64,000 nucleotides of DNA from an uncultured Clostridium sp. GTDB lineage: Bacteria > Bacillota > Clostridia > TANB77 > CAG-508. Within the stretch, counting starts at the first letter, position 1. Each line of letters begins with the position of its first letter. The stretch is from positions 2,370 to 66,369 of the forward strand of contig CAJMJN010000004.1 in assembly GCA_905213875.1 (NCBI GenBank). Direction: 5' to 3'. The notes beneath the pieces were generated by a model that was not told the origin of the DNA, did not search any database, and saw only the letters and a program-made list of their open reading frames with translations. Below are positions 36,263 through 55,253 of the stretch, one piece after another. The position numbers were made by a program, and so were the translations under genes.

Positions 36263-37519
36263 TTATTTTCTGTTTTGCCAATATTTTTCATACAACTCTT
36301 TAGCAGTTTTAGGGCTATCTACACCTTCTCTATTTTTTACAGGTGCAAAATCATCTTCCCTTTTTCCTCTTAAAATTGCTATATCATCAAAAAATTCAAA
36401 AGCATCAAAAATAAATGATTCAAATTTATATGAATTTGGCTCAGTTGGTATTACTTCTTTTCCATTTTCGTCTATATATGAATTCTTCTTAAATGCTGTA
36501 TGATAAATAAGTGGTTCTTTACTTATTTTTTCTATTGCATCAATTGTATATAAATTACACATTATATGTGATTCTCCAAATTTTAATTCTCCATCACTAT
36601 CAACTTCTTCTGCCATTTTTTCTGGAAGTTCTGTGTATTCTATAACTTTAGGGTGATTATTCATTTTACAAAATACCCCCACTCTTTCTTGTGGGTTTGC
36701 CTTTGCAACAGATTTAGATGCTATTTGAACACCTTTTTTAACTGCCATTCCAAGTAATGTAACATCAATCATTTTTAACAAAGCATTATCCACACTACCA
36801 ATAAATACCCATTTTATTCCTTTTTCTTTCATATCTGCTAAACATCCACTTGCTCTTAAAGATGAATATGTGCCACCATTACCATCTGATGCTTCTTTTA
36901 TTTTATATTCTTTGTTTATTAAAAATTTTCCTTCTGTATCTACTAGTGGTAATTCACTTTGTTTAAATATTGTTACTTTATTTTTGTCATATCCGAAGTA
37001 ATTATTTTTTTCTAAGAACTCTACTGTATCAGCATTATTTTCTTTGCTTGTCATTATGTACCAATTAATAACTACACCATACTTTTTATTTGCTTCTTGT
37101 AAATTGTCTGCCAATATTTCAAATAAATATTTTCCTTTTCCATATACATCTAGTTTAAAAGTTCCTTTTGGGCCTGTATGTCCTAATCTTGTACCTTGAC
37201 CTCCAGCCATTGTTACAACAGCATATTGATTGTTTTTGACAATTTCTTCTCCTAATTTATCAAATTCTTCTCTTTGATCTTTTGTAAGTTTAGCTTTATC
37301 TAAATAAGGTACTGGCTCTATTTTACCTTCTTTAAATTTTATTTCTTTTTTAGTATTTTGATATAATTCCATCATTTGATGAAAATCTATTTTATTTATT
37401 TGTTCTATTAATTCTTGTTTTTTTGTTTCATCTAATTTTTCTAATATATTTACTATATGATTTTGACCATATTCTTTTAATTTGTCTATAGCTTCTTTTT
37501 CTCTATCCATTGTTTTCAT
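36263..37519 (-). CDS. UDP-N-acetylhexosamine pyrophosphorylase (UDPGP/UAP1 family)
   Basis: MAGGQGTRLGHTGPKGTF nucleotide-binding loop and the overall ~420-aa layout typical of the eukaryote-type UDP-sugar pyrophosphorylase family. Confidence 0.8.
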   Translation of the reverse strand: MKTMDREKEAIDKLKEYGQNHIVNILEKLDETKKQELIEQINKIDFHQMMELYQNTKKEIKFKEGKIEPVPYLDKAKLTKDQREEFDKLGEEIVKNNQYAVVTMAGGQGTRLGHTGPKGTFKLDVYGKGKYLFEILADNLQEANKKYGVVINWYIMTSKENNADTVEFLEKNNYFGYDKNKVTIFKQSELPLVDTEGKFLINKEYKIKEASDGNGGTYSSLRASGCLADMKEKGIKWVFIGSVDNALLKMIDVTLLGMAVKKGVQIASKSVAKANPQERVGVFCKMNNHPKVIEYTELPEKMAEEVDSDGELKFGESHIMCNLYTIDAIEKISKEPLIYHTAFKKNSYIDENGKEVIPTEPNSYKFESFIFDAFEFFDDIAILRGKREDDFAPVKNREGVDSPKTAKELYEKYWQNRK

Positions 37520-37747
37520 CCCTTCATAATCTTATATTACATTATATGTTCTATAACTAACGTTGCTATTGTATCACATGTACTTTATTTTCGCAAGTTT
37601 TGGTAAATTTTAAAATTTCATTTCGATTGTTATTTTTTCAAATTAATTTTTGTTACTAAAACTTGTCATATTTCTAATAAAAATTAAATATACATTAACT
37701 AAAGTATTAACGTAGTACAAACATCTACAAAATTCAAAGGAGGGTAT

Positions 37748-39037
37748 ATGATGGATAATACAATATTGTATCAAGACATCGCAAAAAGAACTGATGGTGA
37801 TATTTATGTAGGAGTTGTTGGTCCTGTAAGAACCGGTAAATCTACTTTTATAAAAAGATTTATGGACTTATTGGTTATTCCTAATATAGATAATGAATAT
37901 AAAAAAGAAAGAGCAAAAGATGAATTACCACAAAGTGCTGGTGGTAGGACTATAATGACAACTGAGCCAAAATTTATTCCAAATGAAGCTGTTGAAATAA
38001 GTTTAGCAAATAACTTAAAATTCAAGACACGTTTAGTTGATTGTGTAGGTTATTTAGTTGATAATGCAATTGGATATTTAGAAGATGATATGCCAAGAAT
38101 GGTAAAAACTCCTTGGTCTGAAGAAGAAATTCCTTTTGAAAAAGCAGCTGAAATAGGAACTAAGAAAGTTATAGAAGAACACTCTACTATTGGAATTTTA
38201 GTTACAACAGATGGCTCTGTAACAGGCATTCCAAGAGAAGATTATATAAAGCCAGAAGAACGAGTAGTTGCTGAATTAAAAAGCTTAAATAAGCCTTTTG
38301 TGATATTATTAAATTCTACTGACCCTAATTCTGATTATACTAAAGAATTATCTAAAACATTAGCAGAAAAATATGATACAACAGTTATTCCTATAAATTG
38401 TGAATACCTTGATATTAATGATATAAACAATATTTTTTCAAAAATATTATATGAGTTTCCTGCTGACCAAATTAGAATAAAATTTCCTAGATGGGTTGAT
38501 GGACTTGATTTTTCACACCCATTAAAAGCTGAATTATTTAAAGAAATCAAAGAAGCTTTTGAAAATGTAAATGTTTTAAAAGATATTTCCTCTTGTACTT
38601 CAAAAATTAGTTCCACTGAAATAATTTCTAATACTGTAATTACAGATATTCAACTTGGAACTGGAAATGTAAATGTTCAAATAACTTTAAAAGAAGAATT
38701 ATTTTATAAAGTTCTTTCTGAAATTACTGGTGTTGATGTAGCTAATGAAGGTGATTTATTTAAAATAATTTCAGAACTATCTATTACAAAGAAAAAATAT
38801 GACAAAATATCTTATGCCTTAGATGAAGTTGAACGTAAAGGTTATGGAATTGTTACACCTTCTATCGATGAACTTGTTTTAGAAGAACCTGAAATGGTAA
38901 AACAAGGTTCACGTTTTGGAGTAAGATTAAAAGCAACTGCACCTTCTATACATATAATAAGACCTAAACAGATACTTTTTTTATCCACCTCGCTCATTTC
39001 CAAGCCGAGGTGGAAATTTATTTTTAGCTTAACATGA
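37748..39037 (+). CDS. spoIVA: Stage IV sporulation protein A, 5' segment of a split gene (homology ends at about 38962; the last ~25 codons are element-derived)
   Basis: YQDIAKRTDGDIYVGVVGPVRTGKSTFIKRFM...DELPQSAGGRTIMTTEPKFIPNEA is the SpoIVA Walker-A N-terminus. Similarity runs to ...GSRFGVRLKATAPSIHIIR and is then replaced by PKQILFLSTSLISKPRWKFIFSLT. SpoIVA proteins are about 490 aa and continue VD[IV]E[ST]E... after this motif, so about 85 C-terminal residues are missing. Confidence 0.9.
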   Translation: MMDNTILYQDIAKRTDGDIYVGVVGPVRTGKSTFIKRFMDLLVIPNIDNEYKKERAKDELPQSAGGRTIMTTEPKFIPNEAVEISLANNLKFKTRLVDCVGYLVDNAIGYLEDDMPRMVKTPWSEEEIPFEKAAEIGTKKVIEEHSTIGILVTTDGSVTGIPREDYIKPEERVVAELKSLNKPFVILLNSTDPNSDYTKELSKTLAEKYDTTVIPINCEYLDINDINNIFSKILYEFPADQIRIKFPRWVDGLDFSHPLKAELFKEIKEAFENVNVLKDISSCTSKISSTEIISNTVITDIQLGTGNVNVQITLKEELFYKVLSEITGVDVANEGDLFKIISELSITKKKYDKISYALDEVERKGYGIVTPSIDELVLEEPEMVKQGSRFGVRLKATAPSIHIIRPKQILFLSTSLISKPRWKFIFSLT

Positions 39038-40563
39038 TTTTTTTCAATTCCTTGTACATATATCCTATCGATTTTTTCATGTATAAATTCTTTTGTTAAT
39101 TCAAATGTATCAAAATCAAAAAACTTCTTTATTTTTTGTTGATTTTTTCCAGTTTCATTTGCATCTCTATTTACTTTTAATTGTATTAATTGACTTTTAT
39201 AATCCATAATTTCGTCTTGATATTCATTCTTGATTTTTTCAAACTCATCATCAGTAATTTTATTCATAGTATATAATTTTATTAAATTAGCTTTATTCTT
39301 TTCCTTTTCATTTATTGCATTTTCTAAAATTTTTATATTTTTTTCTAATTTAAAATCCTTTTTGTCTAACCTAGAATTTGCTTTCAACATTTCTTTAAGT
39401 ATCATTGATTTCTTTTCTAATAATTCAGAAAAAACCTCACTTAATATACTATTTAATTCCTCAGTTCCAATATATGTATGATTATTACAATTTTTTAAGC
39501 CATTCTTAGCATATTCAGAACATATCCAAAATTCTTCTTTTGCTGTTGGTCTATGCTTTCTTCTCCAAAATTTTTTTCCATCATTAGTACATATCAATAA
39601 ATTAGAATATTGGTATTGATTATTCCAACGATCTCCAGTTCCAGTATACTTATTACTTCTCTTTTCCATTATTTCATTGCATTTTTGCCATATATCGTCA
39701 TTTACAATTTGTGGTACAATATTCTCTTCAGCTTTATAGGTAATCCATTCCTCTTTTGGAATTTCTATTCTTTCCTTACTCATAAAATCTATCACCTCTG
39801 TTTTTTTACCACAATAACATCCTTTATATTTTGGATTTGTAAGTATATTTTTTATTGTAGAATAAGCAAAAACATCTCCTTTTCTCGTTAATTTTCCCTC
39901 TTCTGCTAGTTTCTTTCCAATTCTCCTTATTCCAATATTTCCTGTGGAATATAATTCAAAAATTCTCGAAACAATTTCTGCTTCTTCATCGATTTTTTTC
40001 AATTTACAATTGTCTTTTTCATATCCCCATATAACATTACTGCCAAGCACTCTTCCTTTTTCTATTGCTCTATTAAATCCAAATTTTACCCTTTCTGAAA
40101 TTCTTCTACTTTCATCCTGTGCAAGTGATGCCATAAGTGTTAATCTCAATTCTCCTTCTTGTTCAAGAGTATTAATATTATCTAATTCAAAATATATACC
40201 TTTTCCTCTTGCTAATAAGTTTCTAGTAAACTGTAGTGTGTCTAATGTATTTCTTGCAAATCTACATACTTCTTTTGTTAAAATCAGATCATATTTATCA
40301 TCCATACCATCCTGTATCATATTATTAAAGTCCTCTCTTTTCTTTATTGATGTTCCTGTTATTCCACTGTCACTATAGCCTTGAACTAATGTCCATTTAG
40401 GTATAGATAAAATTTTGTTTTTGTAATAATCATCCTGATTTATTAGTGAATTTTTTTGTTCATTCTTTCCTGTAGAAACTCTTGCATAATATGTCACCCT
40501 TAAAGGTAAATCATATATTGTTTTTCCTGACATTAATGCTTTTCTAATTTCATATAATTCCAT
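38842..40563 (-). CDS. Large serine recombinase (element-proximal)
   Basis: N-terminal resolvase catalytic domain (YARVSTGKNEQKNSLINQ with catalytic Ser, LTKEVCRFARN), a recombinase domain, a Cys-containing zinc-ribbon region and a long coiled coil. The ORF reads through the junction, so its last ~40 codons are antisense spoIVA. Confidence 0.9.
   Translation of the reverse strand: MELYEIRKALMSGKTIYDLPLRVTYYARVSTGKNEQKNSLINQDDYYKNKILSIPKWTLVQGYSDSGITGTSIKKREDFNNMIQDGMDDKYDLILTKEVCRFARNTLDTLQFTRNLLARGKGIYFELDNINTLEQEGELRLTLMASLAQDESRRISERVKFGFNRAIEKGRVLGSNVIWGYEKDNCKLKKIDEEAEIVSRIFELYSTGNIGIRRIGKKLAEEGKLTRKGDVFAYSTIKNILTNPKYKGCYCGKKTEVIDFMSKERIEIPKEEWITYKAEENIVPQIVNDDIWQKCNEIMEKRSNKYTGTGDRWNNQYQYSNLLICTNDGKKFWRRKHRPTAKEEFWICSEYAKNGLKNCNNHTYIGTEELNSILSEVFSELLEKKSMILKEMLKANSRLDKKDFKLEKNIKILENAINEKEKNKANLIKLYTMNKITDDEFEKIKNEYQDEIMDYKSQLIQLKVNRDANETGKNQQKIKKFFDFDTFELTKEFIHEKIDRIYVQGIEKNHVKLKINFHLGLEMSEVDKKSICLGLIICIEGAVAFNLTPKREPCFTISGSSKTSSSIEGVTIP
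38984..39014 (+). terminator. GC-rich hairpin about 20 nt inside the element's left end
   Basis: TCCACCTCG-(13 nt)-CGAGGTGGA followed by AATTTATTTTT on the plus strand. It would stop spoIVA-derived transcription from entering the element antisense to the recombinase. Confidence 0.4.
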
Positions 40564-40671
40564 TGAAATACCTCCAAAATCTTATTTTAATCGCTTGTGT
40601 TGTAACTCTGTTTGTATTTATTGTCAACATTTTGAAAGATATTTCCAAAATTAAAAAGCCCTTATGGGCTT

Positions 40672-42303
40672 TTAACTAGCAATCTTTTGCTTATCTATGT
40701 ACTTAATTATTTTTTTCTTTTTATATAATAATTCTATTGTAATTCCAACTTTTAAAACTATTTCTAAATTTGCTAATCCTGTATCATCCAGTCTCTCTAC
40801 TTTTATTTTATCTAAAATTACATCTACTAATTGTGCTGGTATTCCTTGAAAAAATTCAAAATCCTTTTCAAAACTTTTCTTTATTATTTGCATCTTATCA
40901 TCTATTTCATCCTTATTTCTTGACATTATAAGTTTATTTTTTTCTTCTTCATAGGCTGATATTTTTTCGTTATATATATTGTTTTCTTCCTCAAATTCTT
41001 TTTCATCAATAAGTTCTGTAGTATATAATTTTATCAATTTTTTCTTTTCTTTCTTCAAGCTTTCAATTTTATTTTGTAGTGAAGTTATATCTATTTCAGT
41101 AGAACAGTCTTCAAAGCACTCTTTACATTTATTTAATAAATTCTCTATAAATTTTTCTTTATTTATAAACATTTCATTAAATATTCGTTTTAATACTTCA
41201 TCTAATGTTTCTGTATATATATTAACATTGTTTGCACATCCACTTATACCTTTTTTCTTATATAATGCACATTGCCAAAATTCTCTTCCTCTACTAATTG
41301 TTCTCCAATAACATTGTCCATCTTTTTTGCAATAAATTTTTCCAGAATATTTATATTTTGTATTATAACCAGTTGTTTCGCTTTTAGCTCTTTCACTTCT
41401 TTCTTTAAAGATTTCATTACATTTTTCCCAAATTTTTTCATCAACAATTTGTGGTACAACGTCATCTGTCGCTTTATATTCTACAATTTCATCTTCTCCA
41501 AGATTTACTCTTTGTTTAGTCATGAAATCTATAACTCTTGTCTTATTCCCAGAATAAAAGCCTTTATATTTCGGATTTGTAAGTATATTTTTTATTGTAG
41601 AATAAGCAAATGTTTCTCCTTTTTTTGTTAATATTCCTTCTTCTTCAAGTTTTTTTCCAACTTTTCGTATTCCAATATCACCTGATGCATATATTTCATA
41701 AATTCTTTTTACAATTTTTGCCTCATCTTCGTTCATTTTTAATTTACAATTATCTTTTTCATAACCCCATATAGCATTATTTCCCAATACTCGTCCTTTT
41801 TCTATTGATCTTTTAAAACCAAACTTTACTCTTTCTGAGATTCGTCTGCTTTCGTCTTGTGCTAATGATGCCATTATTGTTAATCTTAATTCTCCCTCTT
41901 GTTCTAATGTATTTATATTGTCCAGTTCAAAATAAACTCCCTTTCCCTTTGCCAATAAACTTCTAGTTAATTGTAATGTATCTAATGTATTTCTTGCAAA
42001 TCTACACACTTCTTTTGTCAATATTAAATCATACATATCATTAAGTCCATCAGAAATCATTTCATTAAAATCTTTTCTTTTTTTTGTAGAAGTACCTGTT
42101 ATACCTCTATCACTATATCCATCAACTAATGTCCACATTGGTGTATCTAAGATTTTATTTTTGTAATATATCTCTTGGTTATCTAACGAGTTTTTTTGCT
42201 CGTCCTTTTCTGTTGATACTCTTGAATAATATGTAACTCTTAGTGGTAAATCATATATCGTTTTTCCTGACATCAATTCTCTTCTTATTGTATATAAATC
42301 CAT
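40672..42303 (-). CDS. Large serine recombinase (second, paralogous)
   Basis: MDLYTIRRELMSGKTIYDLPLRVTYYSRVSTEKDEQKNSLDNQ... is closely similar to the first recombinase over the N-terminal ~300 aa and divergent in the C-terminal coiled coil. It has its own terminator hairpin (AAGCCC-TTAT-GGGCTT, about 40655-40670). Confidence 0.9.
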   Translation of the reverse strand: MDLYTIRRELMSGKTIYDLPLRVTYYSRVSTEKDEQKNSLDNQEIYYKNKILDTPMWTLVDGYSDRGITGTSTKKRKDFNEMISDGLNDMYDLILTKEVCRFARNTLDTLQLTRSLLAKGKGVYFELDNINTLEQEGELRLTIMASLAQDESRRISERVKFGFKRSIEKGRVLGNNAIWGYEKDNCKLKMNEDEAKIVKRIYEIYASGDIGIRKVGKKLEEEGILTKKGETFAYSTIKNILTNPKYKGFYSGNKTRVIDFMTKQRVNLGEDEIVEYKATDDVVPQIVDEKIWEKCNEIFKERSERAKSETTGYNTKYKYSGKIYCKKDGQCYWRTISRGREFWQCALYKKKGISGCANNVNIYTETLDEVLKRIFNEMFINKEKFIENLLNKCKECFEDCSTEIDITSLQNKIESLKKEKKKLIKLYTTELIDEKEFEEENNIYNEKISAYEEEKNKLIMSRNKDEIDDKMQIIKKSFEKDFEFFQGIPAQLVDVILDKIKVERLDDTGLANLEIVLKVGITIELLYKKKKIIKYIDKQKIAS

Positions 42304-42316
42304 ATTGAAAGCCCCC

Positions 42317-42469
42317 TTATATATTTCTAAGTATATAATCTTTCATCTGGTCATCAATTAACCCCTGTTTATTTGCTGAATTTATCAAATATTTACTTAA
42401 TTCTTCTTTAATACTGTTTTCAAATTTTTCTATTGTTTTGGTTTCGATCTTATCAAATATTTTGTCCAA
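42317..42469 (-). CDS. Small acidic ORF (50 aa) immediately upstream of the second recombinase
   Basis: TTG start 7 nt after AGAGGTGAAG. It reads MDKIFDKIETKTIEKFENSIKEELSKYLINSANKQGLIDDQMKDYILRNI and stops 13 nt before the recombinase ATG. It is not in the supplied ORF track because it is under 60 aa. Confidence 0.3.
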   Translation of the reverse strand: MDKIFDKIETKTIEKFENSIKEELSKYLINSANKQGLIDDQMKDYILRNI

Positions 42470-42526
42470 TTTCTTCACCTCTGTTAATGTATATTGAAGA
42501 AATCATTTAAATATTACTGTATTTTT

Positions 42527-42946
42527 TTATTCCCATAATATTTTCTTGGGTACATCATACCCTGTTATGATTCCACTCTTTAAATGATAAGATTTAGTAT
42601 TTTTATTATAATTATAAATAGATGAATTCCACTTTCTAAAAGCTCTATTATTTATTGTTTTTCTACCACCTGATAATTCTCTACTAGCTTGTATATGCAT
42701 TTGTCTTAATTGTGCATACGCTATATCACCATCTTTTCTTTGCTTTCTTTTTTTAGCAATATATTGCATAGTTTGAGCATTATGCTTTTTTTTGTTTATT
42801 TCTTTTCTTTTTTCTTTTTCTAATTTATATCTAAAATCTTTAGTCACTACTCTTGAAACTTTATATTTTGAAATATTTAATTCTTTCGCAATTTCTATTT
42901 GCTTCATTTTATCTTCAAAATACATTTTTAAAATTTTCTCATTCAT
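42527..42946 (-). CDS. Helix-turn-helix DNA-binding protein (element regulatory module)
   Basis: MNEKILKMYFEDKMKQIEIAKELNISKYKVSRVV has a sigma-region-4/HTH-like N-terminus followed by a basic region. Confidence 0.55.
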   Translation of the reverse strand: MNEKILKMYFEDKMKQIEIAKELNISKYKVSRVVTKDFRYKLEKEKRKEINKKKHNAQTMQYIAKKRKQRKDGDIAYAQLRQMHIQASRELSGGRKTINNRAFRKWNSSIYNYNKNTKSYHLKSGIITGYDVPKKILWE

Positions 42947-43016
42947 AGTACCCTCCTGCAACTTTTTGCTAACAGATTTTAAATATGAAGAAACTAATAG
43001 AGCTTATATTAAAACT

Positions 43017-43175
43017 CTATTTAATTTCTAAATCTTCCATTGCTTTTTTAAAATTTTGCTCACTTAATTTTTTTACAGTTTTATATCTTTTATTTCTTTC
43101 TAATATTTCTATGATCTCTCTAGCAAATATTCCTAAACTGAAAGAGATTATAGAAAAAATTAAATATTTTAGCAT
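43017..43175 (-). CDS. Small single-TM ORF (52 aa)
   Basis: MLKYLIFSIISFSLGIFAREIIEILERNKRYK... The ATG lies 1 nt after the stop of the upstream gene (translational coupling). It is below the track's size cut-off. Confidence 0.3.
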   Translation of the reverse strand: MLKYLIFSIISFSLGIFAREIIEILERNKRYKTVKKLSEQNFKKAMEDLEIK

Positions 43176-43176
43176 T

Positions 43177-43464
43177 TTATTTTTTCTCCTTTTTCTCTTT
43201 CATTATTATACTAGCTAATCTTTTTACTTCTGTATTTCCAAATTTTTCATAAAACATTGTTACTTCTTCTTTTATAGACTTGGCTGTTATGTCTGTATTG
43301 CTATTTTTTAATGTATGGAATGCTAACTGTGCATAAGCAGTAATAAGTTCTATTTCGGTTTTAGAATTATTTTTGCTTATTACATCTTTTGTTTTACTAA
43401 AAGTCTTTGTTTCTTTTAAATCTTTTACTTCTGTAACTTGATTTGTATTTCCTTTTTCATCCAT
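43177..43464 (-). CDS. Hypothetical protein
   Basis: 95-aa ORF with RBS GGAGG. I recognise no motif. Confidence 0.45.
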   Translation of the reverse strand: MDEKGNTNQVTEVKDLKETKTFSKTKDVISKNNSKTEIELITAYAQLAFHTLKNSNTDITAKSIKEEVTMFYEKFGNTEVKRLASIIMKEKKEKK

Positions 43465-43520
43465 ATTGTTACCTCCTTCTAATATTAGGAGTCCTATTTT
43501 TTATATTCGATGTTGCATTT

Positions 43521-43691
43521 TTATAATTTTTTTCTATTTTTTGTTAAAGTTTTATAAATCATATATTTTATTTCTTGCATTAAGTCTTCATCAATTCCAT
43601 TCCTTAGCTTACTCATACTTGTAATTAGTGGATTATAATCATCTAAAATTTTCAATATTTCTACATCATCTAAATTAAAGTTATTAAACAT
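43521..43691 (-). CDS. Small ORF (56 aa) overlapping the stop of the sigma-like gene
   Basis: MFNNFNLDDVEILKILDDYNPLITSMSKLRNGIDEDLMQEIKYMIYKTLTKNRKKL. The ATG overlaps the upstream stop. The arrangement resembles the small-ORF/sigma-like pairs of Firmicute conjugative or integrative elements. Confidence 0.35.
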   Translation of the reverse strand: MFNNFNLDDVEILKILDDYNPLITSMSKLRNGIDEDLMQEIKYMIYKTLTKNRKKL

Positions 43692-44118
43692 TGTTTTTTC
43701 CTCCTAGTAATTTTTTTGTAATCTTTTCTTGTGCCTTATTTCTTATTCTCCATATTGTTGTTCTTTCTACATTCATTTCTTTAGCTATTTGATTTATACT
43801 TTTTTCTTCTTTATATAAAGCAAAAAGCACCATCTTTTCTTTTCCAGACAATGCTTTCGCTACATTATATAATTTTTCATCACAAAAAAGTCTCTCGAAT
43901 TCAAGAGCGGACTTTAACTCATCGACACATTTATTAAGAACAGCATCAAATAAACTGCTACTTTCCATATCCTCACAAATATCCAAATTGATTTCTTTAC
44001 TGTTTAAATATTCATAATTATTTTTTATGTATTTTTTTCTAACATTTATAATCAACTTTTTTAAATATGATTTTTCTTCTTTTGATAATTCTTCTTGTAA
44101 ATAATTTTTTCTTTCCAT
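43684..44118 (-). CDS. Sigma-70 region-4-like / HTH regulator
   Basis: The C-terminal KEKMVLFALYKEEKSINQIAKEMNVERTTIWRIRNKAQEKI is a typical region-4 HTH. Confidence 0.6.
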   Translation of the reverse strand: MERKNYLQEELSKEEKSYLKKLIINVRKKYIKNNYEYLNSKEINLDICEDMESSSLFDAVLNKCVDELKSALEFERLFCDEKLYNVAKALSGKEKMVLFALYKEEKSINQIAKEMNVERTTIWRIRNKAQEKITKKLLGGKNNV

Positions 44119-44461
44119 TTATTATCTCTCCAATTTCTAAAAATTGGACAAATATCTAAAAGAGAAAGAAAAACAAATATTAAATTATTTTTTCTTATTC
44201 TTTATAATTTACTTTTACATATTTTTATCACTCCTAACAAATAATCTTTAATTAATAAAAAATCTCTTGTACTTTATTATTTCTTCTAATGTATTATTTT
44301 TCTAACTCTTAAAGACTATTTGTCCTATTGGAGATTATACTTTTTAATGTTGTTTCATTGTAAAAACGGCGATAGATGGCTAATAAACGGCGAAAAATGG
44401 TTAAAATTATTCATAATCAGTTATATTTTTAGTTTTATTTGTAAAAATCTTCCATTTTGTA

Positions 44462-44490
44462 TTGTGTTTACATAATTTTAGTGATATAAT
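44462..44490 (+). promoter_or_regulatory. Candidate promoter of the Spo0A-like gene
   Basis: TTGTGT, a 17-nt spacer, then TATAAT (44485-44490), about 35 nt upstream of the ATG. Confidence 0.35.
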
Positions 44491-44525
44491 ATTGTTGATT
44501 TATAAAATTGTTAGGAGAAGTTATC

Positions 44526-45230
44526 ATGGTAAAGATTCTTTCAGTCATTCAAAATATTGAGCAAAATTCTCAACTTTGCCAATACCTTACGCAAGATAAC
44601 AATATTGATTTTAAAATTACTAGTGATGAAGTTTCTGTTTTGAAACAGTATTACGATTTTAGACCTGACATTTTTATATTAGACACCAGTTTTAAAAATA
44701 TAAAATATAGTGATGTAATCAATGAGCTTTCATTAGATGATACTGAACAATTCAAATGTAATACCATATTACTTTATAACTCTACTACTGAATTATTAAA
44801 TCTTGCAAATTGGTCTAAAATATATAATATATTTTTAAAAACTACAGATTATAAAAATATTTTAAAAGCTATATATGAAATGTCTAATTACACTTTAGAA
44901 AGAAAAATTGATAGGCTATTTTTAAAGTTACATATTCCATTAGAAAGTAGCCCTTCAAATCGTGTTAGAAAAACATTAATTAAATGTTGTAATTCGCCTA
45001 ATTTACTTGGCAATTTAAACACTTTATTTAATACAGTTGGCAAGGAACTTGGAACAACCGGTGAAGGTATTCGTTCTTCTTTTAGAACTGCATTAAAGCC
45101 TTTAAATGAATTTAAAGATAAAGAAGATTTGCCTTTTGCAATTTATAAATTCTTTCCAAAAGGCGAAGAAGTTACCCCAAAATTATTTTTAGATATTAGC
45201 ATATATTATTTGAAAAACACAAAAAAATAA
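44526..45230 (+). CDS. Spo0A-like regulator paralogue (atypical receiver plus a Spo0A_C-like DNA-binding domain)
   Basis: The N-terminal ~120 aa have a CheY-like layout (DIFILDTSF...). The C-terminal LFLKLHIPLESSPSNRVRKTLIKCC...LFNTVGKELGTTGEGIRSSFRTALKPL parallels the Spo0A effector-domain pattern (..GVPAHIKGY.YLR.AI...LY..IA....TT.SRVERAIRHAI). Confidence 0.65.
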   Translation: MVKILSVIQNIEQNSQLCQYLTQDNNIDFKITSDEVSVLKQYYDFRPDIFILDTSFKNIKYSDVINELSLDDTEQFKCNTILLYNSTTELLNLANWSKIYNIFLKTTDYKNILKAIYEMSNYTLERKIDRLFLKLHIPLESSPSNRVRKTLIKCCNSPNLLGNLNTLFNTVGKELGTTGEGIRSSFRTALKPLNEFKDKEDLPFAIYKFFPKGEEVTPKLFLDISIYYLKNTKK

Positions 45231-45272
45231 CAGATAAGTTTTAGTATGATCAAAAACTTATCTGTTATTTTT
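45230..45272. terminator. Bidirectional terminator between the Spo0A-like gene and the radical SAM gene
   Basis: ACAGATAAGTTT...AAACTTATCTGT stem flanked by an A-run and a T-run, between convergent genes. Confidence 0.6.
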
Positions 45273-46465
45273 TATTTATTATTTTTATAATCATTATATT
45301 GATTAATAATATCCACTACACTATTACTTATGTTATCTGAACTTGATATTACTGAATTTAACTTTCTTCCTATAATATCATACATCTCATCTATTTCATT
45401 TTCTTGTACCTTATTATCTATTATCATATTGAATATAGGAATATTATTTTCTAATTTTTCTTTTGAAGATTTTACAAGATCTAATCCGTTCATATTATCC
45501 ATAGCATATTTTGTAAATATCATTTCTGGTTTTAAATCTACAATTTTATGATATGTTTCTGTTCCATCTTTTGCTGTACCAACTATATCAACAAAATCAA
45601 GTTTTTTTATTGCATCAACTATCTTGTTTGTTATATTTATATCATTATGTGCAATTAAAGTTCTAATTTTTCCATTTGAATATATTTTATCAAAATCTAT
45701 TATTTCTTCTTTTAAAGCATTTCCAAAATAATGATCCTTTCCATTTTGTGTTTGAATTATATCTGCATTTGGAACAATTACTATACTTTTTTCAAATTCA
45801 CTTTGTTTTTTATATTCTACAGTTTTGATATTCTCAAATTTTCTTAATCTTTTTACACTATTTTCTAATTCTTTTTCTTCTATTTCAAATAGTTTTTCAT
45901 TTTTTTCTGCCCTTTCTCTAATAGGCATAAACTTCAAAAATTTCCATTTTTCTATTTGATAGTTATTTAAAAATTCTCCTAATTCATCTAATTTATCAAC
46001 ATTAAGCCTGCTAACAACCGTGTTTATTCTTACTTTTATATTCTTGTTTTTAGTTTTTTCTAAAAGATTTTTTATAATATCTAAATGATTATTTTCTTTA
46101 CCTAATGCTAAATTGATATCATTTTCAATTGAATCAATAGATAAATTGATTTCATCAAGTGTATTTAAAATATCTTCTACATATTCGTTATCGTTCTTTG
46201 ATAAGTAAATTCCGTTCGTTACTAATTTATTATATAATCCTCTTTCTTTTGATTCTCTCATTAATTCATTTACTCTTGGATATAATACCGCTTCTCCACC
46301 AGTCCAAGTAATATGGTTTATCCCACTTGCAATTAAATGATTTAATACTCTTTCATTTTCTTCAAAAGATAGATTTGGTATATTGTTAAATCCAAAACAA
46401 TATTTACATCCTTGATTACATTTAGTTGTTATTTTCCAACAAACTTTTTTCTTAATCATATACAT
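45272..46465 (-). CDS. Viperin-like radical SAM enzyme fused to a C-terminal degenerate receiver (REC-like) domain
   Basis: CNQGCKYC (CX3CX2C) in the context [17 protein letters not shown]. By eye I could align it collinearly to animal viperin: [26 protein letters not shown] vs [34 protein letters not shown] vs FKINSVINRFNV, and [12 protein letters not shown] vs RWKVFQCLLIEG. Residues ~270-390 have a CheY-like alternating pattern, but with Lys where the phospho-acceptor Asp is expected. Confidence 0.7.
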
Positions 46466-46604
46466 CCTCTTTTCATATATAAAATCTCTTTTTACACATT
46501 TATATTATATATGAAAAGCAATTGGAAAACTATTCCTAATATTTTAACATCCCTTAAATATCATTGAAAGCAAAAAACATCCTATTTCTAGGACATTTTT
46601 TACT

Positions 46605-47480
46605 TTATATATTTTTTAAATATTCTTTAATGAATTTTTTATCTACCTTTGTCAATTCACCTTTTAGATAAATTAAGTTTAATTTTAGGCTAGGCAATTC
46701 TATTGGCATTTCAACTTCATATAATTCTTTATTATTTAATTCATTCTTTACAGCCTCTTTTATAACATATGCAATTCCCATATTTTTCTTAACTGCTTCA
46801 ACTCTTACTTCGGTTGCATCACACATTATATCAGCATTAATATTAACATTGTATTCTTTTAAAAGTTCCTTTAATCGTTTTGTTGCTTTTGTATTTTCAA
46901 GGTTTAAAATACAATTCAATTTTTCAATTTCTTTTATATCTGCAATTTTCAATGGTGCTTTTGAAACAAATATATTATTAATTTTTAATAATTCTTCTAT
47001 TTCAATATTGCTATTTTCAATCTCTGTATCTATTATTGCAAAATCAATTTCATGATTTTGCAACAAACTCATCATTTTGTTTATATCAACTTCACATATT
47101 ATTTTTATATTAAGATCTGGATAATCCCTCTTAACTTTTTCTATTTTTTCCATTAGTAAATAACTTGTAAAATGTGATGGGCATCCTATTTTTATGCAGC
47201 CACTTGATATATCATTCTTATCCTTTGCTAATTTTTCTGCAAAGTCAAATCCTGATATTGATTTATTTACTATTTCATATAATTCTTTGCCATTTTCTGT
47301 TAGAGTTACTCCTTTGTTTTCCCTATTAAATAGTTTTAAATTTAATTGTTCTTCTAAATTTGATATTTGTGTACTAACATTTGGAACTGATAATCCTAAT
47401 TTCTCTGCTGCCTCTGAATAACTTTTGGATTGAGCAACTTTACAAAATATTCTATATAAGTTCAAATTTACATTTGACAT
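46605..47480 (-). CDS. LysR-family transcriptional regulator
   Basis: N-terminal wHTH (LYRIFCKVAQSKSYSEAAEKLGLSVPNVSTQISNLEEQLNLKLFNR) and a C-terminal substrate-binding domain. Confidence 0.9.
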   Translation of the reverse strand: MSNVNLNLYRIFCKVAQSKSYSEAAEKLGLSVPNVSTQISNLEEQLNLKLFNRENKGVTLTENGKELYEIVNKSISGFDFAEKLAKDKNDISSGCIKIGCPSHFTSYLLMEKIEKVKRDYPDLNIKIICEVDINKMMSLLQNHEIDFAIIDTEIENSNIEIEELLKINNIFVSKAPLKIADIKEIEKLNCILNLENTKATKRLKELLKEYNVNINADIMCDATEVRVEAVKKNMGIAYVIKEAVKNELNNKELYEVEMPIELPSLKLNLIYLKGELTKVDKKFIKEYLKNI

Positions 47481-47492
47481 ACAATCACACTC

Positions 47493-48062
47493 CTATAAAA
47501 TTTTTCTTAATTCTATTTCAGCTTTCTTTATAAAATAATCATTTGTATCTACTGGAAGATTTAATCTTTCCAACTCTTGTTTTATTTTATCTATTGTATC
47601 TAATTGTTCATTTTCTTCAATCTCAATTAGCTTATCACCATTTAGTACATCTTTTATACATATTTGCAACTCATTTTTCTTATAAAGATAATCCATTTCC
47701 TTAATTTGCATAATTGCTTTATAATCAATTGCTTCTAAAAATTTTTTTCCATCATTTGAATCTATAATTTTACAATCAACTTTACTTTGTTTTACTATAT
47801 TTCCTTCTTGATCAATTTCTTTTTTCTTATATGTTAGTTTACTTTCTCTATATTTGTTTGGAATGTATCCTTCAACATTTCGTAAAATTATTGCTTTACT
47901 TAATATATCTCGTTCTGACATATTCTTTATATTAATTGTATTCGGTATATAATAAATATCGTCCAGTAAATATCTTTCTACAAATTGAAATCCTTTGCTT
48001 TCTAATATTTTGCATATTTCTTCTACAGTACATTTTAATTTGACTGTTATTTCATTACTCAA
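47493..48062 (-). CDS. CYTH-domain protein (CyaB / triphosphate-tunnel family), paralogue A
   Basis: 189 aa with a beta-rich pattern starting NEITVKLK (where ExExK is expected) and ending in a C-terminal helix. It is clearly paralogous to 63335..63925. Confidence 0.65.
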   Translation of the reverse strand: MSNEITVKLKCTVEEICKILESKGFQFVERYLLDDIYYIPNTINIKNMSERDILSKAIILRNVEGYIPNKYRESKLTYKKKEIDQEGNIVKQSKVDCKIIDSNDGKKFLEAIDYKAIMQIKEMDYLYKKNELQICIKDVLNGDKLIEIEENEQLDTIDKIKQELERLNLPVDTNDYFIKKAEIELRKIL

Positions 48063-48204
48063 CTTAATATATCTCCTTTACAGTATCACTCTTAAATTAT
48101 AACATATTATGTAAATTTTGTAAAGTTTTAACCAGTCTCTTTTCTCCTTTATTCCCTTAATATATTGCTTTTTATAAAACAAAAAAGATTAGCACTACGC
48201 TAAC

Positions 48205-48462
48205 CTACTCTTCCTCTTTTAAAAAGTCATCTAACTTTTTATCAAATAAAATACTAAATTTAATCAACAATTTTAATGAGCATGTTTTTACTTCATCATT
48301 TAGTGATTCAATTCTTCTTAAATAATCGTGGGACATATCCAATATTTCTGCTACTTCCATTAATGACATTCCACTTTCTTTTCTATACTTTTTTATATTT
48401 TTGTATATAATAGGCATATAATCTTTTGATAATAATGCCTTTAACTTTTCGTTATTCTCCAT
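48205..48462 (-). CDS. XRE-family HTH regulator
   Basis: 85 aa. ..ESGMSLMEVAEILDMSHDYLRRIES.. is an HTH_3-type motif. Confidence 0.8.
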   Translation of the reverse strand: MENNEKLKALLSKDYMPIIYKNIKKYRKESGMSLMEVAEILDMSHDYLRRIESLNDEVKTCSLKLLIKFSILFDKKLDDFLKEEE

Positions 48463-48644
48463 TTAAAACACCTCTTAACAAACTTATTTTTCCATAAATT
48501 AGATAAAAAATATGTAACTTATTTGTCCCATTTAGTGTTTTTATGGTATAATACTGAATAGTAATAAAAAAGTGGCGATTTTTGACAAGTTTTGTCGATT
48601 GTATTGATTATTTGTAAAAAAGTATTACTATATACTTATAGCAA

Positions 48645-48902
48645 TTACTTTTTTCGATGAATATCGACTCTTGGCTCTAGTTTATTTGCTTTTGGATTGG
48701 CAATAAAAAGCAAATAAGGATCTACATCAAGTGCTTTTGCTATATTTTCAATAGTAGGAATTGATGGACTGTATTTTCCTTGTTCAATATCTGATATATA
48801 ATGTGTACTTAAACCAGACAACTCTCCTAACTTTTCTTGTGAGTAGTCTTGCATAAATCTATAATACTTTACATTTTTGCGAAAAATATCTATTAACTTC
48901 AT
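48645..48902 (-). CDS. XRE-family HTH regulator
   Basis: 85 aa. NVKYYRFMQDYSQEKLGELSGLSTHYISDIEQGKYSPSIPTIENIAKAL is a canonical Cro/C1-type HTH. Confidence 0.85.
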   Translation of the reverse strand: MKLIDIFRKNVKYYRFMQDYSQEKLGELSGLSTHYISDIEQGKYSPSIPTIENIAKALDVDPYLLFIANPKANKLEPRVDIHRKK

Positions 48903-48941
48903 TATATATCACCACACTTTCTAATACCATTCTTTTTAGTA

Positions 48942-48950
48942 TGGTATAAT
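48942..48950 (+). promoter_or_regulatory. Extended -10 element (TGGTATAAT) upstream of the membrane REC gene
   Basis: TATGGTATAAT lies divergent from the XRE gene at 48645..48902. A near-identical TATGGTATAAT occurs at 48542-48552, divergent from the other XRE gene. Confidence 0.35.
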
Positions 48951-49063
48951 TTTGTAGCAATATTCACAATGAAGTATATAGCCCAAACATTTTTCTATTA
49001 TAATAAAATACTTTAAAAATCCCAGTATTTTTATTAAAATTTATAGAAAGGAATTCATAAAAA

Positions 49064-49693
49064 ATGTTGTATTTTTTTATTGGTCTTAGTATTGTATTTT
49101 TTGTGCTTATAATCATATTATTTTATAAGATAAATACCTATAATAATAAATTAGCTAAACTAAATAACACTATTTCACAAAAGGAAAGTAAGATTTCTTT
49201 TCTTAATAATGAAATTACAAGGCTAAAAAATTCAGCACAAATATTAGAAGAAAAAGAATTTGAATCTTTAAAGTCAAATCCTTTTAAATTCTCTGAAATT
49301 CCAGAAGAATATAACGGAAAATTTGAAGGTAAAAAAGCCTTAATTGGTAATTATGATAATTTTTCTTCTAAATTAACTCGTACAATGTTAATGAATTTTG
49401 GAATTTCGGCAGATATTGTTACTACAGGTATTGATATATATGACAGAATAAAAAATGGTTGTACATATGATATTATTTTTACAAACAATATTTATCAAAA
49501 AGGCTATACTGGTCCTGAATTATTACATAAATTAAAAAACATTAACGGTTTTAAAACCCCAGTTATTATTCATACTATATCACATGATGCAAGAGAATAC
49601 TTTGTAAATACTATTGGTTTTGATGATTATTTAGAAAAGCCAATAAAATATGAAGAACTTAAAAATATCTTAAACAAATTTTTAAATACTTAA
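49064..49693 (+). CDS. Membrane-anchored coiled-coil protein with a degenerate receiver domain
   Basis: N-terminal TM segment ([17 protein letters not shown]), a coiled coil, then a CheY-like domain ([10 protein letters not shown]...[19 protein letters not shown]...KPI) with Asn at the phospho-acceptor position. Confidence 0.6.
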
Positions 49694-49736
49694 GAAAAGA
49701 GCCACTTCAAAAGTTGGCTCTTTAATATATTATAAA

Positions 49737-50375
49737 TTAATATTTAAACATCAGATTTTCTATATCATTAATATTTTGTTTCTCATTAATTATTATTTTA
49801 AAAACTTCTGGTGCTTCAATTTGTTTATTAATAATTACTTTATCTTTAAATTTTAAACACTTTCTTTTTTCGTTATCAATATTTATCAGTTCGCACCATT
49901 TCATAAGTAAAAATATTATAGAAGCACCATGAGAAAAAATTGCAATTGTCTTACCTTTATTTTCATTAATTATATGCATAAAAGTTTTATACATTCTGTC
50001 AGTAACTTCTTTTCTGCTTTCTCCCTCTACATTTTTGATTTTTTCATCATAATATTGTTTCAAAGTTATATCTTCTGCATATTTAGGATTCCCATATTTT
50101 CTCTCATTTAAATTTCTATTAACATGAATTTTTTTATCCAACCTTTCTGCTAAATACTTTGCAGTTTGTATTGTCCTAACATAACTACTTGAATATATCA
50201 CATCTACTTTATCAAATTCCTTTTGTTTACTTAATATGTTTGCCTTTCTTTCTCCTTCTGCACTTAGTATTCTTTTTTCTCTAGTTATTTGATAATTCTC
50301 ATCATCATAGTATCTATCAATATATTTCATATCTAATTTTTCCGAGTGCCTAATTAAATAAACTATTGTGTTCAT
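49737..50375 (-). CDS. Histidine phosphatase family protein (phosphoglycerate-mutase-like)
   Basis: The RHSE motif (VYLIRHSEK) near the N-terminus and the SHGA motif (IFSHGASI) are typical of branch 1 histidine phosphatases. Confidence 0.8.
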   Translation of the reverse strand: MNTIVYLIRHSEKLDMKYIDRYYDDENYQITREKRILSAEGERKANILSKQKEFDKVDVIYSSSYVRTIQTAKYLAERLDKKIHVNRNLNERKYGNPKYAEDITLKQYYDEKIKNVEGESRKEVTDRMYKTFMHIINENKGKTIAIFSHGASIIFLLMKWCELINIDNEKRKCLKFKDKVIINKQIEAPEVFKIIINEKQNINDIENLMFKY

Positions 50376-50404
50376 ATCAAAACCTCGATTCTATATCTAA
50401 AAAA

Positions 50405-55251: not shown

Positions 55252-55253
55252 TC

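Follow-up and report, generated by a model that had tools for sequence, protein, structure and literature searches.

A large-serine-recombinase element interrupting spoIVA in uncultured gut Clostridia, a candidate for excision in the mother cell

In the literature searched, intervening elements interrupt the sigK, spsM, spoVFB, spoVR, gerE, kamA, and yabG genes (skin, SPbeta, vfbin, vrin, gin, and yin are among them). No report of spoIVA as the target of an intervening element or of a developmental DNA rearrangement was found in this literature, which leaves standing the possible novelty raised in a preliminary description of the locus. Here a spoIVA gene interrupted by a large element is characterized in a 64-kb window, that is, the whole stretch of DNA that was analysed, together with related loci of uncultured gut Clostridia.

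The skin element of sigK (SpoIVCA/Skr in B. subtilis; CD1231/CD1234 in C. difficile) shares with the spoIVA element a large serine recombinase (LSR) gene beside the junction, a small ORF next to the recombinase as the directionality factor (in the spoIVA element only a candidate for it), sigma-E control of the recombinase or the factor (in the spoIVA element judged from a motif only), restoration of the reading frame by excision (in the spoIVA element inferred and undemonstrated), and the retention of reduced non-mobile derivatives. In C. difficile both spoIVA and the skin directionality factor CD1234 are sigma-E controlled (PMC3789822). However, the target of skin is a sigma factor, while SpoIVA is a structural morphogenetic ATPase, and skin is a defective prophage, while the spoIVA element appears to be of conjugative type, possesses two paralogous recombinases, and is at present spreading between species.

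The gin element of gerE (B. cereus ATCC 10987), for which the GirC recombinase and a tiny ORF, GirX (42 aa), suffice (PMC5595907), is similar to the spoIVA element as a non-prophage insertion with several recombinase genes and no phage genes, a likeness drawn without sequence comparison to the gin recombinases or GirX; unlike the spoIVA element, gin is small, is not described as conjugative, and has a target transcribed late (sigma-K). SPbeta in spsM (SprA/SprB) and phi3T in kamA are active mobile elements, as is the spoIVA element, and in these phages one recombination unit serves both horizontal spread and mother-cell gene reconstitution, with directionality-factor expression as the switch (PMC4191935, PMC6957869). 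SPbeta is, however, a functional phage with dual control by stress and sporulation promoters on sprB, whereas the spoIVA element would spread by conjugation, and a division of the dual use between its two recombinases is a matter of speculation. The yin element of yabG (C. botulinum V73; PMC10747680) is likewise clostridial, interrupts a mother-cell sporulation gene, and has, where the 5' fragment meets the element, an LSR of matching relative orientation, but it is prophage-like and comes from a single strain, whereas the spoIVA family is known from at least 17 genomes at species level and from many metagenomes.

Tn5397 (TndX), other clostridial conjugative transposons, and SCCmec (CcrA/CcrB) are conjugative or mobilisable, as the spoIVA element appears to be, and like it are integrated by large serine recombinases. 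The sigma-like and HTH regulatory genes ahead of the spoIVA-element recombinase recall the Tn916-family layout, and the tandem paralogous recombinases recall CcrAB, although only by analogy, as there are no data on heteromeric action. For Tn5397-type elements and SCCmec neither a sporulation-gene target nor a sporulation-type promoter is known, while the spoIVA element has the former and a candidate for the latter.

In the window the ORF at 37748-39037 (plus strand, 429 aa) is SpoIVA from its Walker-A N-terminus through ...KATAPSIH; the ORF opens at 37748, and the start codon used by SpoIVA homologues is at 37751. Codons 1-402, which encode the ATPase and middle domains, occupy 37748..38953 on the plus strand with an intact reading frame, the break lies after the His-402 codon CAT (38951-38953), and the DNA beyond it is foreign. 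In base-level comparison with the uninterrupted locus of a near-identical strain (L001, 99% identical) homology stops at ATACAT, 38948-38953. The preliminary description had placed the break at about 38962, codon 405, which failed by 9 bases (three codons), because the element codons IIR directly after the break by chance resemble the host codons LIK; its estimate of about 490 aa for SpoIVA orthologues held, since the intact gene encodes 492 aa. The tail of the truncated ORF, PKQILFLSTSLISKPRWKFIFSLT followed by a stop codon, is the antisense of the 3' end of the recombinase gene LSR1. Pfam-typed SpoIVA homologues of 492 aa consist of SpoIVA_ATPase, SpoIVA_middle, and SpoIVA_C, the last of which is missing from the window copy and from several 428-aa database proteins. 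No spoIVA 3' fragment was detected in the 64-kb window by tblastn with the B. subtilis SpoIVA C-terminus.

The 5' part of the gene differs from intact L001 by 1 nonsynonymous and 15 synonymous substitutions, all interrupted spoIVA 5' halves tested are free of stop codons and have dN/dS of 0.11-0.24, and the spore-only genes spoVAC, spoVAD, and spoVAE are intact in the window genome. Upstream of the gene an exact match to a sigma-E-type promoter pattern, TCATATT-N16-TATACATT(AA), is located at 37666..37696 on the plus strand, and its GTCATA ... TATACATTAA blocks are conserved in 13 related loci. Taken with the mapped sigma-E promoter of C. difficile spoIVA, which has the -35 motif ATA (PMC3789822), this conservation in the clade supports the earlier claim that spoIVA is a SigE-dependent mother-cell gene. 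Just inside the element a conserved hairpin, CCACCTCG...CGAGGTGG (38984..39014, plus strand, 8 predicted pairs), is followed by a T-rich run; it is kept in 7 of 8 family members, with two pairs retained in L091 via changes on both sides, and it may possibly terminate the truncated spoIVA transcript, a function which is only inferred.

The right junction of the window's own element was not recovered, and its genome is apparently outside the GTDB representative set. None of the GTDB-representative attR junctions had a 100% identical C-terminus; therefore the right junction was sought in a different sample of the same species via the downstream PAP2 gene. A metagenome contig, L135, whose downstream PAP2 protein is 99% identical, carries the right end of the element joined to spoIVA codons 403-492, and this 3' fragment matches the C-terminal part of the intact allele with 100% identity. 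The left side of the window attL and the right side of the L135 attR together equal the uninterrupted attB of L001 (within positions 6930-7000 of that contig), base for base. That recombination of attL with attR would restore the 492-aa spoIVA exactly is shown at the level of sequence, while the recombination itself has not been observed. By these data, the L001 comparison and the L135 fragment, the claim that spoIVA is split by an inserted element held, and its proposed refutation as a dead pseudogene, with no 3' fragment anywhere, failed.

In all seven genomes with both junctions, joining attL to attR at CA keeps the reading frame through the junction. Four of these rejoined genes have the complete 492-aa ORF intact, and the other three have an N-terminal frameshift, likely an assembly error, because the same shifts occur in uninterrupted MAG loci. 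When proteins were searched with the last 91 aa of SpoIVA, the matches were all cluster representatives at most 95% identical, among which the window allele was absent and many attR-derived ORFs appeared, and tblastx of attR loci against the window gave low-complexity noise only. Close relatives do not end at the break: the species is polymorphic, with an uninterrupted 492-aa spoIVA in 9 of 10 PAP2-linked contexts, and a 492-aa spoIVA is present in about 75 related genomes. The occurrence of uninterrupted spoIVA on many contigs of the species also fits simple insertion polymorphism, which counts against a developmental reading.

Comparison of attL, attR, attB, and attP across the family defined the attL core as ATACAT (38948..38953), the Ile-His codons, within which the 2-bp crossover is likely CA (38951-38952), the position of the dinucleotide being inferred. 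The element-side half-site of attL (P' arm), TATAATAAGACCTAAACAGATAC at 38953..38975, is an inverted copy of the arm at the opposite end, GTGTCTGTTTAGAGCC... The inverted attP arms, GTCTGTTTAG-N24-CTAAACAGAT, were reconstructed for the window family and observed side by side in the metagenome contig L117 of the single-LSR subfamily, which has exactly the predicted arms, with the small ORF o53 and an LSR adjoining; the predicted attP is TCTGTTTAGAGCCTGTCATACATATAATAAGACCTAAACAGATAC. A pattern scan of JGI metagenomes for attP yielded this single-LSR subfamily as its one match and none for the two-LSR type of the window. The att sites are short, imperfect inverted arms around a 2-bp crossover (CA, by inference), with attP the more symmetric when set against attB, as is typical of large serine recombinases. 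It is shown, then, that spoIVA is split, that both halves are intact, and that the element ends carry inverted arms. The CA crossover is consistent with every attL/attR pair except an off-target copy, L087, a near-identical element located in another gene, where the junction dinucleotide is TA (a one-base disagreement). A crossover at AT of CAT was considered and rejected, as the two junctions of one genome disagree at the third base of the His codon (L091/L102, L086/L111).

Two recombinase genes follow the junction on the minus strand, LSR1 (38842..40563) and LSR2 (40672..42303), in agreement with the preliminary description, which had large serine recombinase genes abutting the break. Both proteins have Resolvase, Recombinase, and Zn_ribbon_recom domains (PF00239, PF07508, PF13408), the RVST motif, and lengths of 533-543 aa, and they are paralogous with 56% identity; they conform to the large-serine-recombinase plan, in which a resolvase catalytic domain with the active-site serine at the N-terminus is joined to a recombinase domain, a zinc ribbon, and a coiled-coil C-terminal region. 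The conserved LSR1 protein ends near 38954, but its ORF finds no stop inside the element and extends 40 codons into antisense spoIVA; it has a PHROG integrase match (E = 6e-101) and as best PDB match 3g13, a conjugative transposon recombinase (C. difficile-type). LSR1 overlapping attL with LSR2 beside it is the layout of 7 of 10 related loci; LSR1 is degraded in two of the others, and the remaining one is located outside spoIVA. LSR2, directly after whose stop codon a terminator-like hairpin was found by consensus scan only (40654..40673, minus strand), is the sole recombinase retained in reduced elements.

The o53 ORF (50-53 aa; 42317..42478, minus strand) lies 14 bp upstream of LSR2, is present in every family locus covering the position, and is kept even in the inferred 3.2-kb mini element and in the attP contig. 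It had no Pfam or PHROG match and no detectable homology to known directionality factors, and its designation as a candidate recombination directionality factor is a possibility inferred from where it lies, how small it is, and its retention.

Directly upstream of the o53 ribosome-binding site, family alignment and pattern search indicated a sigma-E-type promoter-like site, TAATATT-N16-TATACATT(AA) (42486..42516, minus strand), the -10 block of which, the 14-mer TCAATATACATTAA, does not vary among 8 aligned family members. The o53-LSR2 site, TAATATT-N16-TATACATTAA, and the host spoIVA site, TCATATT-N16-TATACATTAA, have the same -35 type, spacing, and -10. The strict pattern occurs in the 64-kb window only at these two places, with 0.03 expected, and all 11 family loci have the motif in a relaxed form; the pattern was, however, defined after both sites had been seen, and the genome is very AT-rich. 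The sigma-E assignment of the o53 site rests on its similarity to the spoIVA promoter and on published consensus features, and is inferred from sequence alone with no expression data. The shorter motif ATATACATTAA taken alone was discarded as not specific, since the window has 4 such sites, including one ahead of a pilus ATPase gene. Scanning 37400-44700 for the sigma-70 consensus was uninformative, with a site count no higher than in shuffled sequence.

Ahead of this unit is a regulatory module (42527..44118, minus strand) composed of an HTH protein (42527-42961), small ORFs (43017-43175, 43177-43464, and 43521-43691), and a sigma-70-region-4-like protein (43684-44118), and 45-78% identity of the module is retained in divergent family members. 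The cargo, typed with Pfam and PHROG, extends from 44508 to 64000 and runs off the window end, so that the element covers more than 25 kb of the window; it includes a radical-SAM/receiver fusion, LysR, a response regulator, UDP-glucose dehydrogenase, an epimerase, paired APH-like kinases, PHP phosphoesterases, HPr-kinase-like P-loop proteins, and NUDIX. Positions 38948-50566 are 99.3% identical to L087 and positions 52825-64000 are 99.0-99.5% identical to the contigs L096-L101, among which L099 (99.5%) runs on into VirD4/TraG, AAA_10, TrbL, TraC-like, M23, and MT-A70 genes within 10 kb, and L096-L098 run on into a TED/SpaA adhesin gene instead. RadC, DUF3560, SAM synthetase, and sortase are encoded at the right ends of the elements. 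No type IV secretion or conjugation genes (coupling protein, VirB4-like ATPase, relaxase) were found inside the window, and no relaxase was identified. By Pfam the cargo holds metabolic, regulatory, and conjugation-type genes only, and the element is likely ICE-like, the conjugation genes being seen only on related contigs; the earlier claim that the cargo is not phage-like held. A prophage reading was rejected, as PHROG matches were limited to an integrase and sigma-like regulators, with no phage structural, packaging, or lysis genes.

Members of the family sit at one and the same spoIVA codon in uncultured gut Clostridia, in at least 17 genomes counted at species level. GTDB species representatives contributed 9 attL and 15 attR junctions at this codon, and 7 genomes have both, in three cases on one contig, with element sizes of 54.3, about 14.7, and about 14.2 kb; one further copy was inferred at about 3.2 kb. 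The reduced elements (about 14 kb and the inferred 3.2 kb) keep o53, a single LSR, and the att sites, and such spoIVA halves as were recovered beside them are intact, the elements themselves being apparently without conjugation genes. In a metagenome collection 45 indexed blocks contain the exact truncated 428-aa allele of the window with both recombinases behind it; 23 contigs were inspected and had the identical junction, and the 10 places shown were all from different samples. The interrupted allele is found, for example, in the metagenomes ERZ27261680 and ERZ27242813, and the 119,884-bp contig ERZ27261680:k119_35603 extends about 59 kb to the element side of attL. LSR proteins are 98-100% identical across hosts whose SpoIVA is 81-88% identical to that of the window, and the element is clearly mobile between species.

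The reading preferred here is that of a spoIVA-intervening element, spoIVA being a new target, which is likely excised under sigma-E control in the mother cell, although excision during sporulation is inferred and has not been observed. On this reading the element has integrated into the spoIVA coding sequence by LSR recombination at ATA CAT, with CA as the probable crossover dinucleotide. In the mother cell sigma-E RNA polymerase would transcribe both spoIVA and the o53-LSR2 unit from promoters of the same architecture, o53 would act as the directionality factor turning the recombinase toward excision, and the element would exit as a circle, with spoIVA restored by the time it is needed for assembling coat and cortex. 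The forespore chromosome would retain the element, which would be inherited through the spore. In vegetative cells the element would still be able to excise and transfer by conjugation, and such transfer from growing cells is proposed as the reason for near-identical copies (LSR 98-100%) in hosts with SpoIVA differing by 12-19%. The skin/SPbeta-like architecture claimed in the preliminary description is supported by the junction recombinases, the inverted-arm attL and attR, and the in-frame restoration, while sporulation excision is still an inference. There is no experimental or read-level evidence for sporulation excision, for which the attP junction of the single-LSR subfamily in one metagenome contig is the sole indirect support, and purely vegetative excision for transfer remains compatible with the data.

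The alternative which survives best, ranked below mother-cell excision but possible, is plain insertional inactivation, where a target-preferring conjugative element sits in spoIVA and its carriers are unable to sporulate, excision takes place at low frequency in growing cells only, for transfer, and element-free spore-proficient siblings sustain the population. It is favoured by the species polymorphism (9 of 10 PAP2 contexts uninterrupted), by the clear movement of the element between species attested by LSR identity as against SpoIVA divergence, and by the lack of excision data; gut Clostridia are also known to lose sporulation. Against it stand the integrity of both spoIVA halves where both junctions were recovered, bar the frameshifts common to uninterrupted MAGs, and equally beside reduced elements apparently devoid of conjugation genes, the sigma-E-like motif that all 11 members conserve directly ahead of o53 and the LSR gene, the intact spoVA genes of the window, the wide occurrence of the interrupted allele in independent samples, and the low dN/dS.

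A split protein without DNA rearrangement, composed of the 402-aa N-terminal part and a separately translated C-terminal domain, is very unlikely. Gene callers do give many attR-side ORFs their own starts (e.g., MNVCVCLEPIIH-LIKTNV... and MIKTNV...), but the 3' ORFs showed neither a promoter nor a ribosome-binding site, their start codons are variable or missing (none was called in L135), and the conserved recombinase module with its promoter is left unexplained. Localisation and polymerisation of SpoIVA in B. subtilis and C. difficile are known to need a covalently linked C-terminal domain, which also speaks against this model. An assembly or binning artefact joining unrelated DNA at a low-complexity AT-rich site, for which it can be said that most related sequences are MAG or metagenome contigs and that the L087 copy has a different flank, is all but excluded by the identical junction in the 23 contigs inspected (all 10 places shown being from different samples), by the reciprocal junctions with attL and attR on single contigs in 3 genomes, and by the existence of a matching attP junction.

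Beyond mother-cell excision as the preferred reading, a bolder one may be considered as a possibility, that a conjugative element spreading between gut Clostridia has come to follow the promoter logic of its target gene and assigns separate tasks to its two recombinases. The sigma-E-driven o53-LSR2 cassette, the only part kept in the 14-kb and the inferred 3.2-kb derivatives, would perform mother-cell excision, so that the host still sporulates and the element rides in the spore, and LSR1 would serve conjugative excision and integration, the roles of the two recombinases being unresolved. If this is true, the element would be both an infectious agent and a developmental switch on the earliest coat morphogenetic protein.

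The family offers new serine recombinases, for which attB and attP sites are defined and a directionality factor is proposed, as possible tools for genome engineering. As a widespread, horizontally mobile, and non-phage group ranging in size from 54.3 kb to a cassette inferred at 3.2 kb, the family is well suited to comparative study of the way in which mobile elements turn into developmental DNA rearrangements. Among coat morphogenetic proteins SpoIVA alone is conserved in every spore former, and therefore a removable insertion in its gene would be a strong on/off control over sporulation, which is relevant to gut commensals transmitted as spores.

In many gut Clostridia spoIVA is split at a single codon by a family of non-phage, site-specific mobile elements bearing large serine recombinases. 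In the window, SpoIVA sequence runs through the open reading frame at 37748-39037 (+) from its Walker-A N-terminus as far as ...GVRLKATAPSIH, where 27 unrelated residues and a stop take over; SpoIVA homologues are 492 aa long with the Pfam domains SpoIVA_ATPase, SpoIVA_middle and SpoIVA_C, the last of which the window copy lacks. Two database proteins 99% identical to the window SpoIVA (P0001 and P0002) extend as ...APSIHLIKTNVQTEVSPIVGSEKQ... through residue 492, and their uninterrupted locus (L001) shares the upstream genes of the window (UDPGP, hexapeptide transferase, a holin-like gene, DUF421, DUF4363) and carries 3' of spoIVA the PAP2 and tRNA_edit genes, both missing from the window. 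Compared base by base, L001 and the window lose homology at ATACAT (38948-38953), the Ile-His codons 401-402. Directly after the break lie LSR1 (38842-40563, -) and LSR2 (40672-42303, -), which share 56% identity and each have Resolvase, Recombinase and Zn-ribbon domains. The preliminary description of a spoIVA split with serine recombinase genes at the break was thus upheld by reading frame, Pfam and L001 comparison; its break position, about 38962, was 9 bases too late, since the element opens with the codons ATA ATA AGA, which are similar to the host TTA ATA AAA.

The LSR1 frame meets no stop within the element and crosses the left junction (attL) into antisense spoIVA, gaining 40 codons in the window (38842-38953, -); for L002 the called gene or frame has 537 aa, for L087 560 aa, and its tail would differ again in the joined element ends (attP), so that the recombinase C-terminal tail varies with integration state and host. 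About 30 nt inside the element a conserved hairpin is followed by a T-rich run (38984-39014, +), kept in 7/8 family members, with compensatory changes in 2/8 pairs in one member; it could conceivably terminate the truncated spoIVA transcript, shielding LSR1 from antisense transcription.

The missing 3' fragment of spoIVA was not found in the 64-kb window. The right junction (attR) of the same species was sought via the downstream PAP2 gene, and in nine of ten such contexts spoIVA was intact, the interrupted one being L135, a 60,994-bp contig. Its attR reads ...TCTGTTTAGAGCCTGTCATACA joined to TTTAATAAAAACTAATGTCC..., with the element right end (SAM synthetase, DUF3560) just upstream and a spoIVA 3' fragment 100% identical to the intact allele. 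The fragment which the preliminary description had proposed to seek elsewhere therefore exists, on a contig of the same species. The left side of the window attL and the right side of the L135 attR together give exactly the uninterrupted site (attB) of L001. Precise recombination would rebuild spoIVA.

Among species-representative genomes the scan for the SpoIVA C-terminus gave 80 loci, with the N-terminal part directly upstream in 77; the other three (L041, L082 and L081, the last at a contig edge) contain only the 3' part and all start at the same codon. At right junctions the arm GTGTCTGTTTAGAG... is an inverted copy of the arm CTAAACAGATAC adjoining attL, and the pattern of this arm plus codons for TEVSPIVG revealed 15 attR junctions. 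The LSR1 search gave 10 loci, nine abutting the spoIVA 5' part at the same codon, with LSR2 and LSR1 both intact in 7/9. Both junctions are present in seven genomes and lie on a single contig in three, where the element measures 54.3 kb (CALXFH01), ~14.7 kb (CALXCA01) and ~14.2 kb (CAKPOF01). When the left and right host sides were joined at the CA of the His codon, the frame continued across the junction (...APSIH[LM]I[KR]...) in all seven; the 492-aa frame was whole in four, and the frameshift near codon 29 or 108 in the other three is probably sequencing error, because such frameshifts are also found in uninterrupted MAG loci. Single-base frameshifts recur near codon 29/30 or 100-109 in interrupted and uninterrupted MAGs (L023, L024, L031, L038, L065, L073, L088, L092, L093) and most likely represent homopolymer assembly errors, though their positions recur.

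The attL and attR of one genome are identical through ...CA, after which the next base can differ (CAC/CAT in L091/L102 and L086/L111), and four attR junctions from different hosts share the attP-side sequence as far as ...ATACA; from these comparisons a 2-bp crossover at CA (38951-38952) is inferred as the likely one. In L087 (CAAEQN010000006.1, HGM13641; 11560-11700) another gene, which by eye only we take to be an ABC-2-like permease/membrane protein gene, adjoins a further copy of the element that matches window 38948-50566 at 99.3% identity. This junction reads GCTGATATA followed by TATAATAAGACC, with TA where every spoIVA junction has CA, and may reflect off-target integration, later mutation or a chimeric contig.

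Reduced elements retain a single recombinase. In CAKPOF01 (~14.2 kb) and CABQAZ01 it is of LSR2 type, 83-84% identical to the window LSR2, preceded by a homologue of o53, the small candidate directionality factor gene (42317-42478, -), and followed by a ~250-bp remnant of the LSR1 3' end with the att arm. In CABQAZ01 less than 3 kb separates attR from the recombinase gene end (L104 4981-8000, CABQAZ010000022.1), containing only a gene pair, o53 and the recombinase; the pair we take, by eye from translations, to be nucleotidyltransferase/HEPN-like, possibly a toxin-antitoxin module. This appears to be a mini spoIVA-intervening element of ~3.2 kb, a size inferred since attL lies just beyond the fetched stretch. 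Scanning of JGI metagenomes for both arms side by side gave one contig, OGWV01000496.1, reading ...TTTTATCTGTTTAGAACGTACAATGCA joined to TATAATCAAACCTAAACAGATAC... immediately beside o53 and a gene of LSR2 type; the CAKPOF01 junctions predict precisely this attP. An excised or pre-integration form therefore exists for this one subfamily, and the core had been predicted correctly.

Elements of other types interrupt spoIVA after the same His codon with different junction sequences (L138 8001-17362, L140 360-692, P0041, P0216, P0224), with tails IERIKQKYK... and heads ending ...GLLLIIH and MFQTIH, the recombinase gene in L138 lying ~8 kb from the junction. Judging by these junctions the codon appears to be a recurrent target of several recombinase lineages. 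The NCBI protein P0003 (520 aa), a SpoIVA homologue with a ~115-residue internal duplication in the N-terminal ATPase region, is truncated at the same point (...KLKAIKPLLYI) and probably represents either an assembly artefact or a further interrupted copy.

The search for phage structural genes in the element was negative, PHROG matches being confined to the integrase and sigma-like regulators, in agreement with the preliminary view of the cargo as not phage-like. The conserved module comprises, in order, LSR1, LSR2, o53, an HTH protein, three small ORFs and a sigma-70-region-4-like protein. It is followed by a radical-SAM enzyme fused to a response-regulator receiver-like domain (45272-46465, -), which adjoins a LysR regulator (46605-47480), a pair kept in divergent family members at 47-77% identity. 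Then comes an operon of unclear function (50405-63982, -) with sugar-nucleotide enzymes (UDP-glucose dehydrogenase, epimerase), two paired APH-like kinases, two PHP phosphoesterases, two HPr-kinase-like P-loop proteins, an AdoHcyase-like NAD-binding protein, a xylose-isomerase-like TIM barrel and NUDIX; for the exact NUDIX protein the assembly collection has 2612 indexed blocks, and the cargo is thus extremely frequent in gut metagenomes. Six long metagenome contigs match window 52825-64000 at 99.0-99.5% identity and reach 9.3 kb past the window end, where L099 carries VirD4/TraG, VirB4-like AAA_10, TrbL, TraC-like, M23 peptidase and MT-A70 genes and L096-L098 a TED/SpaA adhesin gene. Right ends of family members contain RadC, sortase, DUF3560 and SAM synthetase, and among PDB entries LSR1 best matches a 'putative conjugative transposon recombinase'. 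On these grounds, with the absence of phage structural genes, the element is regarded as ICE-like, which is an inference for the window copy, as its middle and right parts fall outside the window. It is mobile, since recombinases remain 98-100% identical between hosts while SpoIVA identity to the window copy falls to 81% (L086) or 88% (L002-L005).

Upstream of the o53 ribosome-binding site TCAATATACATTAA is invariant, with GTAATAWTT 16 nt upstream, in an alignment of eight family members with coding sequences only 50-80% identical; across 13 aligned genomes, GTCATA and TATACATTAA stand out as conserved blocks in the region of the host spoIVA promoter. In the window the spoIVA site is TCATATT-N16-TATACATTAA (37666-37696, +) and the o53 promoter-like site TAATATT-N16-TATACATTAA (42516-42486, -). 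The pattern KMATAWW-N16-TATACATT occurs in 64 kb only at these two (0.03 expected), a measure of specificity and not an independent discovery, as it was derived from them; a relaxed pattern lies within 80 nt of o53 in 11/11 family loci (background, 0.39 per 10 kb per strand). A sigma-E promoter has been mapped for C. difficile spoIVA; the -10 element is common to sigma-E and sigma-K, the -35 is not (ATA vs AC, respectively), and the skin directionality factor CD1234 is under sigma-E control (PMC3789822); both window sites have ATA. Because a terminator-like hairpin comes after LSR2, o53-LSR2, the pair also kept in reduced elements, may form a sigma-E-type unit, a possibility inferred from sequence alone. 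The invariant -10 block AATATACATTAA (42484-42494) resembles the spoIVA attB core CTATACATTTAA (38948-38960; L001 attB), which could arise by chance in AT-rich DNA or mark a putative recombinase binding site, the evidence being resemblance only. ATATACATTAA is also present upstream of the pilus ATPase gene (7808-7818, -).

The main rival explanation, plain inactivation of spoIVA with excision in vegetative cells only, is given a rather low probability but is not excluded. Several results speak against a decaying pseudogene: spoVAC, spoVAD and spoVAE are intact in the window and a LonC-type protease gene is present, the spoIVA 5' half differs from the intact strain by one non-synonymous and 15 synonymous changes, and interrupted 5' halves were without stops in 8/8 tested, with dN/dS 0.11-0.24; these data do not date the insertions. 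The chromosomal flank (3648-12906 and 14819-16964) contains a type IV pilus cluster (two T2SSE ATPases, T2SSF, prepilin peptidase, PilN-like) and the intact spoVAC-spoVAD-spoVAE operon. An assembly artefact at the junction is ruled out, since the assembly collection has 45 indexed blocks with the exact truncated allele followed by both recombinases; 23 contigs were read, and the 10 places examined each come from a different sample.

The literature searched names sigK, spsM, spoVFB, spoVR, gerE, kamA and yabG as interrupted genes ('spoIVFB' in one list of PMC6957869 is possibly a slip for spoVFB, named elsewhere in it) and holds no report of a split spoIVA; most subscription journals were outside the search, and an earlier mention is possible. 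By analogy with skin, SPbeta, gin and yin, the preferred reading is excision in the mother cell: sigma-E would drive expression of o53, as directionality factor, and LSR2, which together would excise the element, an event not observed; the forespore would retain it, and conjugation would provide horizontal spread. Such a mechanism would be the same in kind as that of the known intervening elements, the differences being the target gene, the putative conjugative carrier, the paired recombinases, a promoter matching the target gene's own and the breadth of the family.
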